From: a virus
Taxonomy: Duplodnaviria; Caudoviricetes
DNA: 64,000 bases
Virus record (IMG/VR): IMGVR_UViG_3300028430_000741
Location: 544 to 64,543 of that record
Strand: one strand, 5' to 3'
The notes under the pieces are model-generated. The model saw only the letters and a list, made by a program, of their open reading frames with translations. It did not search any database and had not been told where the DNA came from. A program made the translations under genes and the position numbers. This document shows, in pieces, positions 31,522 through 44,601 of the stretch (position 1 is the first letter of the stretch; the number at the start of each line of letters is the position of its first letter).

Positions 31522-31678
31522 ACTCGCTATTCTTCTGTATAGACCCCATCGCTAACCCGTTGCGGTAAATCGTGCAGAGATTCTCCTGTATTGTCCGATC
31601 TCCCCGGCACGACGGTAGTACCCCCCACACAATCGCCGCCACGATCATGATTACCACCGTTATTAATCCTTTGCTCAT
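31490..31678 (-). CDS. small membrane protein
   Basis: N-terminal TM segment; ATGA overlap with the TMP stop. Confidence 0.5.
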   Translation of the reverse strand: MSKGLITVVIMIVAAIVWGVLPSCRGDRTIQENLCTIYRNGLAMGSIQKNSEYEHVCYCANR

Positions 31679-43600: not shown

Positions 43601-44601
43601 TTTAAAAAAGAATTAAGTATATTAACTACTTTTGTCTGAGGTTGTGCATTTTCTAAAAATCGTTGCATTGATAAATTTGCTATTTCAGCTTTGGACAACC
43701 CCTGTCCTGCATATTGTTTTTGTATTTCCTCTGTTGATTGTTTGAGTATTTTCGATAGTTCAGGGTCTTTTTGAATTAACCTTAATCTTTCCTTTGTTTT
43801 ACTTGCAGGAACCGTAGCTATTTCTTGTAGAGTTTTAAACCTTTCTATTACCTGATTTACATTAGTTCTTTTAAAAGCGGCGTTAAATGCTTTTTCTGTG
43901 CTTCCAGAGCGAGTCAATTCTGACAAGTAAGTTTCAAGAACTTGATTTTGTCCTAATAAATATCTGTCTATTTTTTTGATAGCAATAGTTATTTTTCTTG
44001 CAGCATTGCGTGATGGTTCTACTGCCCAAGTGTTAGAAAATTCTTGTCCGATTCTTTCAAAATAGCCTCTAACAACGTCTCTTAAAACCGTCGCAGTAGC
44101 TTTAAAAGGTAAAGCAATGACGCCTGTTACTAAGCGACTAGCCGCCCCAACAATCCCTCCGCGGCTATAGGATTTTCGGATTTCTGAGGCAAGGCGAGAT
44201 GTTGATCGCTCGATCTCTTTTTCTACTTTGTCCTGATACCCCGAAAACCGATGCTCGACCACAAGTCGGGACGGAACTTTTATATCAACGCTGACACGCT
44301 TTAACTCTCGCAACTGCTGATTAAGACTAACAAGTTGCCGATCCTCGACAAATACCCGAATAGGGTTGCGCCGATAGTGATCGCTGGTTTTATCGAGGTC
44401 ATCCCGTTTTAACTTAAGGTGATCGTTTAGTTGGTACAACGGGCGATCATCTACTTTTACCCCGATTTTCACCGTCACCCCAGAGCGGGCGGCCATACGC
44501 TGTAGGGAGACAAGTTGACCTTTTGCCCGTGCGATACCAGTATCGTACTGAGTAGTAATTAAACCTAGTCCGATTTCTAGCGTACCTAGTGAAACGGTCA
44601 T
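31675..44601 (-). CDS. giant tape measure protein with inserted enzymatic domains (~4308 aa)
   Basis: Follows G/GT chaperones; starts MTVSLGTLEIGLGL; tape-measure domain (AINQM...EEFTQQL.E) near 36300-36900; long coiled coils; C-terminal FSSGG...EYVIP...YASGG. Confidence 0.9.
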   Translation of the reverse strand: MTVSLGTLEIGLGLITTQYDTGIARAKGQLVSLQRMAARSGVTVKIGVKVDDRPLYQLNDHLKLKRDDLDKTSDHYRRNPIRVFVEDRQLVSLNQQLRELKRVSVDIKVPSRLVVEHRFSGYQDKVEKEIERSTSRLASEIRKSYSRGGIVGAASRLVTGVIALPFKATATVLRDVVRGYFERIGQEFSNTWAVEPSRNAARKITIAIKKIDRYLLGQNQVLETYLSELTRSGSTEKAFNAAFKRTNVNQVIERFKTLQEIATVPASKTKERLRLIQKDPELSKILKQSTEEIQKQYAGQGLSKAEIANLSMQRFLENAQPQTKVVNILNSFLKEISPFLRFVQGMKDYRTSLEAQKIYSERKAGFPKLKEGEDVVSVIGGAQFRGGQGGRKVAMSLEPLAPQKRFIPVENPETDTDLENERPAEKQFKAFISRNLPFLEGEEILNTLINAFRQISSSLDVFTPSTAAAQALANTMLAQEQGRKGNAVSYSLGGVDNIQYARTAQFMGVKDTQALAIAYPFVDITQSTPKNFTASMLTSDPLGFVKLLGIGNKTNQFMGIESTNPYGSANHHQKHLFKNIEFINKFFATINANIPDLSPGKISAIVEAGDKLYELIGSMNQIESVLSTGEFNTDLPFHRFLQGYDGQTTKSNVLDLVLEMMQDNFAIEAFKDVEGAEEFYAKLRNQFDKIASQFKEKFQASGVNLPENLARDFAGFLKYQEVAEGYNKSMTEFQTGKVSEKPSWWAGNLDPNTVKQRTGKLQTETIPWFRKEGSKFGSYQDALIEMFTLIDKVTKEYVSRGGNLSDETRQNLKFFPTETIPSEINAFLGKSFPTKNLPKEEIVRDLNLQFPEYTASTSNLTALQKIDYEAEKQRVTKLFRNRQAAILAYNKLITELTDEIVPSIDKIKAIGTGFPELGMHGSFAFLTDEFVYKTDIDPEGVNKKIATPNELETYKQLQGRLSPLLYKAVPDKAIVTERIQGKTLKEILTRIAQPFKKVQKQLADATLALDKVTKEGNEAEIERLNKEITSLEKTAQKEKTRFNKAATILYKQVGQLNSALQKMGVVHNDLAETNVFFSPQGIRAIDFGGSQVNPTAAQKIEDKKTVIDRMMGNNQYEGLMDKTAVAGAILSGFQSPLPIPEKRTVDPEKLKQTTPGQLIELGSTNPTLLQQYGEKITYPKTKPFSIPPKQEKVTTPKTEKLNPTVFLEQSLTRNTDRTITALNSIEQALNEIKKGILAKYASPLIDPWQNSTPDPWAKSNAELMRVFVDAINKVSSQKLLPPAPDDFGSSETDRGNSPLEKILEDISIKAQAGLKSALTTRLSTPDSSGEIQLLTGQENISELLNQVLIREVKEAGRILGNALKDASLDVVKFGQIVFTVLKAIERPVMAIPGVGLGKKALQVGGTAAIGASALHALPMGLDATIVNEMRSILAGAMSAGGREMIQAVATQMTQAFSGLPFGVGQQLTEAVMNLVTELTNGTISVLAQGGAVAGSALMAGEGVKKLLGAATSSVPKLIDKEEQQKIEGKTQKLLKAAKDKAGSLITTEITPYFDEKAFPVSSPIPANIKAINPKYYTVKQLRGLARDQGIDVPASGLGARKEEIWKSLIEKFNPDQLTRLLLTTKASDRTKLGKKELSGFQIETRKIPADFIETISSGIESITQQINTNKDIQSLKTLFSQLEKIKTGIALIRANPEFDTTSINKSLSGFVTSINNLLLNAKSQIQSKNILLPASTSNLQAENIPLPVTETPNPLKRVPQENSPTSPGFVEKLPISDLNLDPERFQYKLVHGKTGSTGSLSGVGKWDDDLAGVVSVWRDPEDGKVYVVNGHNRLNLAKDLNVKDITVRLLNAQSAQEARAKGAMINIAEGRGTAIDAAKFLRDMNLADKESLKKAGIPMRDRVASQGLALAQLPQELFDRVASGDISELRGVQIGGSGLKEFQQRELVKLIENFEKKGKKVTESVVSELIDTLNASTVDTVEQFDLFGSSTTQQTDVLTRAEVQSALRNRIATDKRVFGSLTSDKKAAKLKTAGNQINTEENKAIAEQAEQALRVFDQLKNTASPVSSIINEAITLIKEQGMTAKAATDAVYDKLKQIVPQLAKGGLESGKNLSEGLTKGLKDNDAEKIVRKNARNIIDGLNDELGNRSPSWKGEKAGRYLIQGVGIGIEKEESRLTTKIKELTTKVIKELQSGMPVNAQQFIQTESFKGVTINPATTGSANKPIENNWEKTEKSVRENIQEIATEAKKHSKDIQRGLSEASPGPTWNIRKNWRVTAEYVSVQIRQIAQEAEQAKARIDKAGLAGFTFKPFTPSLPKASPPLPLLLPSSPAPSIRTERENQRQQRISAPAPSNRIIPAFGASPYSFGEYLASLVQKAEQAIYRQTLSGGGGGNQPPKPPRIASPASPEPEPPKREKFDVSKEAERVLEDIQKARAILQKQESLLNQTLKAAKPQKSTREKILEDWNQKRDNIFKALDSVEKAGVSSGFTDGIVTGLKTAIAQADGFINFLSVGGKALRTLDKELDAATGGMINLRKASLAVIGGFALFKTAEFLLEPLFFAIQDLPFRVQQAVTDSLLAFTELQQIRINLDIAGVNNVDTAIDGLRNRADELGISFRESTKQYAQFQIVTTGSPLQAQGDDIFEGFQSALAVRQTNPQQQTETFRAINQMAARSVLSVEEFTQQLTESGGLYDALIVAARAMGMTTAEFYRQASAGQLLSQDVIPRLAAEYERLSAGGIGASSKTLQAEMNRYQNNIEQLSMSTGEKLGVVAYPALQLLNTLLKGLNDNLGLVATVSASAVIATIGLLGKSVLQFSAATRLGQGLIASYNASLFAMGVTAGQTTTKMQMLSATAKVAGGVLKATIGAMIVPAATIVALQTFYDIFENGDANLKNSLQTLKESRKVLEDLGKIEPENENKNLWNKFFPDMNLSGTEKFFNVLTVGTVYTFKRNNAVRDQQENLKNIREGAEGLETNLKTYQTVLSDTDGIDKFIDSLQGLRNSLAQVRAERAIAANKEDFAAVARLNEREQELMKQEQEAIDRRLGSVGSRITADLQVAEAALAALEEEYQKSGGTLKNYGAKSERLKGIIAGLKAEQQNYLNVLRDQEKEYKKLQYAFNRTLNAQENRNFINARQSLNRQIGNELAFASGQLNEYEFNVKVREESLQTAKEKFASLQTTASETGAKLSSRITEAADKTLSTYFKDDLKRLGVGNFSEAIARNLLSPEAIERVMSENSGDLESNAALKNILEMAKTYATTRQEILQSEKEIQSINREIITERKRRQLSEKQAANEILIAGQQEKLYSSTPTGKLRSLQPAETRVSLEELYKQLAVEQERLAANVDDPLQIRSNIARIKTNIARTRLTLRDQQNDLVEFYTTTAIEIEATNKQIGLTARTASNQVKTFARDQTLIEISKLYKQLAFEQSKLVGTLKGDPLEVKANIARIQLQIEQAKLSLRDQTTDIEDYYTGLQRQVVDLRVSIEDYQIQSAREVRGFKEAYGDMIRGLQRSLIEAENEFRASQRSLENQRLQVSMLSGRTPGVSSLQKQLDDLILQYRDEIASIQGEADSLRTRPLDIRDQSIQFARQLRDIQEQIYDAERNRLKQLRDFWMQQVQIVRELSQQQLTFKSLNEIWAGILENSKKLLAKSGKIAGGKVPNVALAIGEAPNNSESSEQYRQGTSNNPRTLQRGDYIDYGNGRIYKYDPSPNYDPKTMRYRSPVNADEIRHPSVVQQVGTSGSEEFDRLLMRSGLYKNWEGFTREVLNPNLQPLTPEERANYNAGNVGRYSGVLTGQPQANIPLTPLPTFDYDRARELDTQIRITREKTLQNQKEENLLKLERARRENLDRIAGLIQQTQEARIQAEIGLRDTGDTSTDLMRSSKGYLTFSEKIEQARRNGSREIEKQRESIQSQIRSLDQLTSDFAKNSEETRARLFQDTGNDDAFKALEAENKRNTAILEGYKALDNQLSVYGQIRGEAAAMRMIEDERVAALERYNNLIADGIDAGNRMNPLGTLFSAGEAQKLRIEADFARRRLELQRYAQEGALSPTQLFEMSSALDKMQQANLASAFIEANPAVGAFGDLLRSAFTGGRDTLQQMLNVLTSFLQKIGEMAANQLLMQIFGGSGRASSPVPSGGGGGGLLGGAISLFTGSLGGFSSPIASTPFTGASNFSLGTGFSLFSSGGKIGADAPIEKNVISAFRRERSMSGGRNPRLIVANEDEYVIPANEAKSYLEYKNAPIKNYASGGFVGGTGYSVTTSNNNSSNQSLSITNVSNVTIESRNDMGYSLTQLKERENAQNERTKRRFFG

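Follow-up and report, generated by a model that had tools for sequence, protein, structure and literature searches.

A giant tape measure protein with inserted enzyme-like cassettes in an uncultured tailed virus: a probable carrier of polyvalent effectors

The giant tape measure gene and its surroundings

The window analyzed here is a stretch of 64,000 nucleotides (positions 544 to 64,543 of the IMG/VR record IMGVR_UViG_3300028430_000741 from a virus of the Caudoviricetes, Duplodnaviria), which covers nearly all of the parent viral record of 64,543 bp, rated as complete by CheckV. As indicated by the listing of open reading frames (ORFs) and their translation, about 20% of this genome is occupied by a single minus-strand ORF at positions 31675..44601, which starts with ATG and encodes a protein of 4308 amino acids (aa), in agreement with the ~4300 aa given in the initial annotation of the stretch. 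An AGGAG motif is located 7-11 nt 5' of the ATG, and an alternative TTG start further upstream at 44646 would extend the product to 4323 aa. The protein is three to four times as large as usual tape measure proteins (TMPs), contains no cysteine at all and carries hydrolase-, kinase- and ParB-like domains in its N-terminal half. We regard it as probable that it represents a genuine TMP which has been turned into a carrier of polyvalent effectors.

The assignment as a TMP is based on several independent profile matches. The Pfam family TMP_3 (PF20155) is recognized at aa 2587-2760 with 50.1 bits (cut-off 41; 57.5 bits in a six-frame search), the NCBIfam model TIGR02675 (tape_meas_nterm) with 26.6 bits (cut-off 21.35), and the PHROG TMP families phrog_2335 (E 2.8e-14) and phrog_1686 are matched as well. 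A query with the TMP core (aa 2451-3650) retrieved 143 phage records, among which the matches listed are mostly annotated as TMPs; these matches are confined to the TMP_3 stretch and show 26-33% identity. The best match in BFVD is a "Tape measure domain protein [Bacteriophage sp.]" (E 9.3e-12), while a search for near-identical DNA in the phage collection found none. The gene directly follows a G/GT-type pair with a -1 frameshift and precedes the tail-tip genes. As judged from these matches and from the gene order, the protein is a genuine TMP in the canonical gene slot, and the TMP-like termini ascribed to it earlier are likewise borne out.

In the upstream pair, the ORF at 45044-45802 ends with GAA AAA AAC GAA TAG and contains the slippery heptamer A_AAA_AAC at 45056-45050, from which the -1 frame stays open for 150 codons until a TGA at 44600-44598, which overlaps the ATG of the TMP gene. 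As read from the sequence, this ORF and its -1 extension show the classical layout of the tail assembly chaperones G (45044-45802) and GT, which together span 44598..45802 on the minus strand. A tail completion or Neck1 protein is encoded further upstream on the same strand (47265..47660; phrog_5, E 4.8e-7). On the other side, the stop codon of the TMP gene is followed after ~150 nt by the minus-strand tail-tip genes (28506..31521), which code for an NlpC/P60 protein (31099-31521) and a J-like tail protein (28506-31070) and are recognized by the Pfam families NLPC_P60, Phage-tail_3 and Rcc01698_C and by phrog_329 and phrog_4271. Far from this tail module, a 774-aa protein with matches to a glycoside hydrolase (phrog_2913) and a "tail assembly protein" (phrog_778) is encoded among the replication genes (11426-13750).

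The composition of the TMP gene is not uniform. The GC content at third codon positions (GC3) amounts to 0.45 for aa 1-160, 0.23-0.31 for every module within aa 161-2450 and 0.48-0.51 for aa 2451-4308, the GC content of the remaining genome being 43%. The GC3 breakpoints, which are also visible in a coarse GC profile, coincide with those seen in related proteins. On compositional grounds, a foreign block of 2290 aa (aa 161-2450; 37252..44121, minus strand) is spliced in frame into an ordinary TMP frame consisting of aa 1-160 and 2451-4308. A long coiled coil and a Gly-rich C-terminus belong to this frame, as do the TMP_3 core and hydrophobic segments. The N-terminal scaffold (aa 1-160; 44122..44601) is kept in every cargo variant according to BLAST maps. 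The TMP core (aa 2451-3430; 34312..37251) includes the TMP_3 domain (36322-36843) and hydrophobic segments at aa 2537-2556, 2789-2814 and 2857-2886, and the conserved C-terminal end (aa 4173-4308; 31678..32085) follows a Gly-rich stretch with 21% Gly in aa 4101-4200. Within the inserted block, a second scaffold of no known family (aa 1216-1717; 39451..40956) is the best-conserved part (77-94% identity among relatives). It contains a hydrophobic stretch rich in Gly and Ala at aa ~1400-1500 (15% Gly, 7% charged residues and a mean hydropathy of +0.65 for aa 1401-1500) and is even kept in the relative P0031, where the ParB cassette described below and the hydrolase-kinase block are both missing.

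Since a metagenomic viral record is involved and the GC content shifts abruptly within the ORF, the giant ORF might be an artefact of mis-assembly or of sequencing errors fusing separate genes. This explanation appears hardly credible: the frame is open across all module boundaries, the respective protein cluster comprises 7 member sequences on 2 contigs, and the same architecture recurs in independent contigs, as represented by 19 viral loci, including one of 97% identity (L010), and 28 cluster representatives (E<1e-30). An open frame of 12.9 kb in DNA of 43% GC, together with this recurrence in 19 viral loci, is not expected by chance.

Enzyme-like domains of the N-terminal half

The initial annotation had proposed hydrolase, kinase and ParB-like domains for the N-terminal half, and structure prediction, fold searches and conserved catalytic residues confirm all three as real domains, which are separated by helical and Pro-rich linkers. 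For the first two, aa 1-1200 were aligned with 24 relatives (25 rows) and folded with AlphaFold2, yielding a model with a mean predicted local distance difference test value (pLDDT) of 73.8 and a predicted template modeling score (pTM) of 0.68; values for aa 250-1170 are mostly between 80 and 95, while the first 200 residues are poorly modeled.

The alpha/beta-hydrolase domain (aa ~366-600; 42802..43506, minus strand) adopts an alpha/beta/alpha sandwich fold with a nucleophile elbow of the sequence S-Y-S491-L-G, followed by D540 and H571. Each of these three residues is invariant in 22/22 rows, S491 being part of an S-Y-S-L-G-G motif, and in our reading of the model they follow the consecutive strands 485-490, 532-537 and 557-560, as would be expected for a catalytic triad in the canonical Ser-Asp-His order. 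The neighbors in fold space are of the acyl-protein thioesterase/lysophospholipase type and also include a DDHD phospholipase domain. Feature neighbors in an atlas (DUF900, DUF676, Abhydrolase_8, Thioesterase, Lipase_3 and LCAT, with scores of 0.84-0.93) may serve as a lead only.

The second domain (aa ~881-1140; 41182..41961, minus strand) shows the bilobal fold of protein kinases and resembles the Bud32/RIO type. A Foldseek search against PDB retrieved Rio2, PRPK/Bud32, Rio1 and aminoglycoside phosphotransferases (best match 1zar, E 6.5e-5; TMt 0.6 to PRPK). The Gly-rich loop (G918, G921), the beta3 Lys (K933) and the alphaC Glu (E950) are present in 25/25 rows, the HxDxxxxN catalytic loop (H1067, D1069, N1074) in 24/24 and the Asp of the DFG motif (D1086) in 24/25. 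The model also shows an inserted helical hairpin of ~80 aa (aa 984-1062), which follows the hinge and precedes the catalytic loop. By fold and motifs, the domain is a member of the kinase superfamily, with no placement in a named family. When the hydrolase-kinase stretch was compared with the sequences in PDB, nothing beyond weak matches to the catalytic loops of Bud32 and MSK1 was obtained (E 0.076-0.89), and Pfam searches at E<=10 with four cargo segments yielded nothing above threshold.

The third domain belongs to a cassette at aa 1718-2101 (38299..39450, minus strand), which consists of a ParB/Srx-like N-domain, a ParB-type helical domain and a helical bundle. It was modeled from an alignment of aa 1691-2110 with 30 relatives (31 rows), reaching a mean pLDDT of 80.6, and the top matches in Foldseek are Noc, ParB and KorB (E 7.6e-6 to 4.9e-4). 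The ParB/Srx fold retains its conserved active-site Arg, and an N-G-H-x-R motif and 15 further positions are invariant in 31/31 rows. The more specific designation of this module as DdrB-type found no support: an hhalign comparison of a five-row profile with P1 DdrB gave a probability of 0.14% and an E-value of 0.42, with a weak alignment on DdrB residues 66-155, although a distant relationship to DdrB is possible given the shallowness of this profile. P1 was also absent from the 28 tblastn matches, PDB sequence searches with the ParB stretch and with the five-row profile gave nothing meaningful, and the sole LPD-type Pfam signal in the protein is a sub-threshold match to LPD26 (E 0.09). The module does match the C-terminal part of phrog_21, a PHROG annotated as portal (E 6.5e-61). 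A second gene of the ParB family is present in the same genome as a free-standing unit: a ParB-like gene (phrog_620) overlaps a gene for a Mom-like DNA modification protein (phrog_1384, E 2.5e-56) at 53062-54287, divergent from the terminase side.

By the rule of 1.5 Å per residue for tail rulers, the whole chain would correspond to ~650 nm and the scaffold alone to ~300 nm. It is very unlikely that all 4308 aa merely act as the ruler of such an extremely long tail, with the enzyme-like stretches representing decayed, non-catalytic remnants. The length of TMPs does scale with that of the tails, as described for Cluster EB Microbacterium phages (PMC7302621), and the protein is mostly helical by composition and in the models. 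Like the artefact explanation, this one is nevertheless poorly supported, because the catalytic residues of kinase and hydrolase are invariant among relatives of 26-53% identity (D1086 with its single exception), the domains are modeled as compact globular folds with pLDDT values of 80-95, and the gain or loss of cassettes between near-identical phages would shift the tail length without evident reason.

Cassette exchange, domain polarity and cysteine avoidance among relatives

The variation of the cargo among homologous TMPs, which had been suggested as a check of the initial annotation, is indeed observed. The BLAST maps used for this comparison were queried with the representative of the respective 90% cluster (P0002) in place of the window translation; as it is of the same length and differs in 33 of the 4308 residues, the coordinates are unchanged. 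To obtain the 28 cluster representatives, aa 1-1200 served as the query of a full HMMER scan against 1.84 billion representatives; nearly all of the 28 are 3000-5800 aa long, and most contain the TMP core as well.

One example is the ParB cassette, which shows a presence/absence polymorphism. P0050 is 98% identical to the giant TMP over aa 1-1717 and 2102-4308 and lacks exactly aa 1718-2101, and P0051 (97% identical) also lacks the cassette and carries a different insert further along. The junction in the cassette-less proteins reads ...LQTQILAKGGLESGK..., while the cassette in the giant TMP ends with ...KQIVPQLAKGGLESGK..., indicating that it carries its own copy of the junction. This junction repeat (LAKGGLESGK..., aa 2102-2231; 37909..38298, minus strand) is a TMP-type motif similar to those of Clostridium phage TMPs and to phrog_1686, which bounds the cassettes and is present in 1-3 copies spaced ~270-460 aa apart in the relatives. 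Seventeen of the 19 related viral loci span the ParB slot, the other two ending before it; the cassette is found in 6/17 and missing in 11/17, always with identical boundaries. Its identity amounts to 95.6-98% where that of the flanking scaffold is only 62-83%, which points to recent exchange.

Other slots vary in a similar manner. The N-terminal slot occurs in three forms, represented by 11, 4 and 3 loci, respectively, with one further locus being truncated. P0060 shares 79% identity with the giant TMP in aa 1-160 and 83% in aa 2375-4308 and carries a different N-terminal block of ~1190 aa in between, which contains a Pkinase match above the Pfam cut-off; the corresponding match in P0181 is below threshold (26.4 against 31.7 bits). 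Seven alternative cassette slots of relatives were searched against Pfam: five gave no match, one a sub-threshold match to LIP (E 5.9e-4), and the slot following the ParB cassette in locus L017 was recognized as ART-PolyVal (PF18760; 49.8 bits, cut-off 31.2), an ADP-ribosyltransferase (ART). The respective chain (L017:9983-12406) combines hydrolase, kinase, ParB-like and ART-PolyVal domains, the ART cassette being placed between two junction repeats. As far as these sequence comparisons go, the cargo is organized as cassettes at fixed slots, which are exchanged among related phages.

A slot in the C-terminal half deserves mention here as well. At aa 3623-3830 (33112..33735, minus strand), a non-helical insert of ~200 aa rich in Pro, Tyr and Asn interrupts the C-terminal coiled coil. 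It has no family match and occupies a position where relatives carry SLT and Beta-lactamase2/Peptidase_S11-like domains; it may be a candidate for an unrecognized envelope-acting domain.

The domains are distributed with a clear polarity. Domain positions were determined for six relatives (P0054, L023, P0056, P0087, P0066 and P0181), and in each of these all wall-acting domains, which belong to SLT, Peptidase_M23, VanY, DPBB_1 and Beta-lactamase2/Peptidase_S11, are C-terminal to TMP_3, whereas kinases (P0060, P0181), the ART domain (L017) and the ParB-like module (the giant TMP as well as P0061, P0063, P0066, P0068, P0077 and P0087) are N-terminal to it. In phage 80alpha, the three copies of the TMP have been described to bind Tal at the tip with their C-termini and to touch the tail completion protein, adjacent to the end of the DNA, with their N-termini; ejection of this TMP as a pilot protein has been proposed. 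If this topology is valid here, wall enzymes would exit first and cytoplasm-type enzymes last, just before the DNA.

The absence of Cys from all 4308 residues contrasts with ~52 expected, as 27 other ORFs of the phage contain 125 Cys in 10415 residues (1.2%). Among the giant relatives, 24/29 are also free of Cys, including the podoviral carrier P0116, a member of the P-SCSP1o cluster. This avoidance may reflect selection on a chain that has to cross an oxidizing compartment in an unfolded state.

A possible route of delivery, its alternatives and its relation to known systems

What is known of TMPs in general and the avoidance of Cys suggest that the cargo enters the infected cell along with the DNA. 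In the proposed mechanism, the tube and the G/GT chaperones would assemble around a TMP trimer, whose C-terminus would be anchored at the tip, while its N-terminus would be located at the neck, adjacent to the tail completion protein and to the end of the DNA. At infection, the TMP would leave with the tip end first and breach the envelope, the wall enzymes of the relatives (SLT, M23, VanY and beta-lactamase-like domains) being located in that half. The Cys-free N-terminal cargo half would thread through the channel next, probably unfolded and just before the DNA, and would refold on reaching the cytoplasm, which offers ATP, NTPs, DNA and NAD+. The kinase may then modify host proteins there, the ParB-like module may bind or protect the entering DNA or act on nucleotides, and the hydrolase, being of an esterase/lipase type, may act on a membrane or a small molecule. 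In this way, the cargo might contribute to counter-defence.

The hydrolase and the other modules might instead act in the envelope, helping the TMP to cross the outer membrane, the wall and the inner membrane and not serving counter-defence or takeover. This would extend the established theme of TMPs with wall enzymes (such as P1 Sit), to which the relatives with SLT, M23, VanY, DPBB_1 and Beta-lactamase2 domains also belong, and it would suit the thioesterase/lysophospholipase and DDHD phospholipase types among the fold neighbors and the lipase and LCAT types among the atlas neighbors of the hydrolase. We hold this to be unlikely, since a kinase requires ATP, a ParB fold NTP or DNA, and the ART-PolyVal of L017 NAD+, all of which are cytoplasmic, and since the cytoplasm-type domains occupy the half opposite to the wall enzymes.

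Another conceivable fate of the cargo would be its translation together with the TMP and subsequent cleavage, leaving it in the producing cell for a late role in assembly, host manipulation or superinfection exclusion, so that the tail would receive no more than the C-terminal ~1860 aa. The cargo block is bordered by low-complexity linkers rich in Pro, processing or fragmentation of TMPs is often observed, and P1 DdrB is described as being processed before packaging (PMC5512222). Three observations render this quite unlikely. The N-terminal 160 aa agree in GC3 with the C-terminal part of the TMP, and all variants retain them, which suggests that both termini are needed in one chain; the avoidance of Cys extends over the cargo, which is hard to explain for enzymes staying in the cytoplasm; and the same ParB module occurs in two podoviral giant proteins at a T7 gp16-like slot, the ejected status of which is suggested by gene order only.

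Several points weigh against the interpretation of the giant TMP as an injected effector carrier. Processing at the Pro-rich linkers (aa ~1141-1215 and ~2300-2450), either prior to assembly or in the course of it, could remove the cargo half. The lumen of siphovirus tubes is only ~4 nm wide. Three copies of folded domains of 25-45 kDa would be too big for it, which implies storage in an unfolded or extended state, removal of the cargo by cleavage, or a very long tail. In addition, the hydrolase fold match appears only at rank 46 of the whole-model search, no alpha/beta-hydrolase model of Pfam matched aa 361-660 at E<=10, nor did any Pfam ParB or DdrB model match the ParB-like module at this level, and the kinase stays below all pertinent cut-offs (RIO1 18.7 against 22 bits, Pkinase 15.1 against 31.7, APH 13.9 against 23.2, Kdo 13.6 against 21.3). 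With the hydrolase and ParB domains unseen by Pfam and the kinase below its cut-offs, the assigned functions depend on models from shallow alignments of 25 and 31 rows. Searches of Pfam, PHROG and NCBIfam with the chaperone ORFs and the presumed tube gene (46034-46777) gave no matches; of the earlier statement that the TMP gene follows tube and G/GT genes, the latter part is supported by the slippery site and the -1 frame, while no profile supports the identity of the tube protein. No distal tail protein or lambda M/L-like gene was recognized between the TMP and NlpC/P60 genes.

Finally, no evidence names a host, so that no defence system can be named as a target, and the label of cyanophage had to be dropped. 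The closest phage relatives of the large terminase are from Rhizobium phages and a Methanoculleus virus (~41% identity), a contig search gave only contigs from metagenome-assembled genomes of mixed phyla, and the TMP_3 matches span many hosts. A single tRNA-Met (CAT) is encoded directly after the large terminase gene (57384-57452, minus strand).

Proteins of comparable complexity are known from other phage contexts. Kinase and DdrB-like ParB domains have been described in polyvalent proteins (Iyer, Burroughs, Anand, de Souza, Aravind 2017; PMC5512222), with P1 DdrB, P1 DarB, MuF-fused proteins and the N4 vRNAP as prototypes. The main text of that study contains no occurrence of the term "tape measure", while its supplementary catalogue could list such architectures. 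The giant TMP resembles these proteins in being a very large multidomain product of the late structural gene block, in joining unrelated hydrolase, kinase and ParB-fold domains in one structural protein of 4308 aa, and in its cassette-like, variable cargo, which includes ART-PolyVal in one relative. It differs from them in that the carrier is the TMP of a long-tailed phage and neither head-packaged nor linked to MuF or a portal, and it shows no significant similarity to P1 DdrB and no LPD or ParB family of Pfam above threshold.

The link to polyvalent proteins suggested by the initial annotation is also corroborated by the distribution of the ParB-like module, which was found in 129 proteins of 2369-7539 aa within a collection of 5.8 billion proteins. 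Many of these carry precomputed matches to PF18760, PF13563, PF02834, PF00644, PF00990, PF06414, PF18857 and PF18809, and PF18834 and PF18798 occur as well. We take PF18760, PF18857, PF18834, PF18809 and PF18798 to be polyvalent-type families, the name having been checked for PF18760 (ART-PolyVal). TMP_3 is present in 7 of these module-bearing giants among the 120 matches listed. In the phage collection, the module occurs in three phages. One of them, the isolated Ruegeria phage 45A6 (L008; KT820175.1, 24146-35884), encodes a hypothetical protein of ~3900 aa with the ParB-like module and could offer cultured access to it. Two giant proteins from Autographiviridae, PSCSP1a_00021 of Prochlorococcus phage P-SCSP1a (2571 aa) and one from the uncultured phage MedDCM-OCT-S31-C1, share the module with 34-37% identity (E 1e-39 to 1e-50). 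Both genes are located after those for the tail tubular proteins A and B and three further genes, an order that suggests the slot of a T7 gp16-like internal or ejected core protein, PHROG giving only phrog_21. Unlike the giant TMP, these carriers are different proteins from short-tailed virions.

Enzymatic domains in TMPs are familiar in themselves, as T5 pb2 and the TMP of mycobacteriophage TM4 contain muralytic domains. P1 Sit is annotated as "structural injection transglycosylase; putative tail ruler" (NC_005856). The giant TMP shares with these proteins the combination of a ruler leaving the tail at infection with enzyme domains, and its relatives add the wall enzymes listed above. It differs in that its own recognizable enzymes are not wall enzymes, are located N-terminal to the core and, together with their linkers, account for more than half of the protein. 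A further parallel exists with contractile injection systems (CIS), where the effector of Streptomyces davawensis is reportedly related to TMPs. Sle1 is likewise described as a TMP-related effector of actinobacterial CIS (PMC13277306). Both are, by description, TMP-derived modular proteins in a tail-like tube with exchangeable domains, but represent the cargo of bacterial CIS, with the functional domain at the C-terminus, and not a phage's own ruler.

While polyvalent proteins, muralytic TMPs and TMP-derived CIS effectors are known as such, the block of low GC3 between TMP termini, the exact presence/absence polymorphism of the ParB cassette, the swapping of cargo, the polarity and the complete lack of Cys are new features. 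No description of a phage ruler with polyvalent-type, cytoplasm-acting cassettes was found in the literature, supplementary catalogues being outside the scope of this search, and as far as our searches show, homologues have been deposited in databases without being discussed. To our knowledge, the polyvalent effectors described to date are associated with proteins packaged in the head or, in short-tailed phages, with internal core proteins, and the enzymes known from TMPs are confined to wall hydrolases.

With a tail ruler that bears a kinase and a ParB-like module, joined in relatives by an ADP-ribosyltransferase, host-takeover or counter-defence enzymes would have a second way into the cell prior to any gene expression. 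Such a ruler would also pose the physical puzzle of how several globular domains in three copies each could travel in a lumen of ~4 nm. More tentatively, the TMPs of this whole uncultured clade of long-tailed phages may be regarded as programmable injection scaffolds, in which Cys-free cassettes bounded by the junction repeat would be stored unfolded in the tail tube and threaded into the host ahead of the DNA, their order of exit being built in by wall enzymes in tip-proximal and cytoplasm-acting effectors (kinase, ParB-like, ADP-ribosyltransferase) in head-proximal positions. If this is true, every gain or loss of a cassette would also alter the length of the tail, and virion morphology would thereby be linked with the counter-defence repertoire. 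Concrete and testable features are provided by the fixed slots and the junction repeat as well as by the strict polarity and the complete avoidance of Cys, and they suggest a natural scaffold for engineered protein delivery by phages in laboratory strains.

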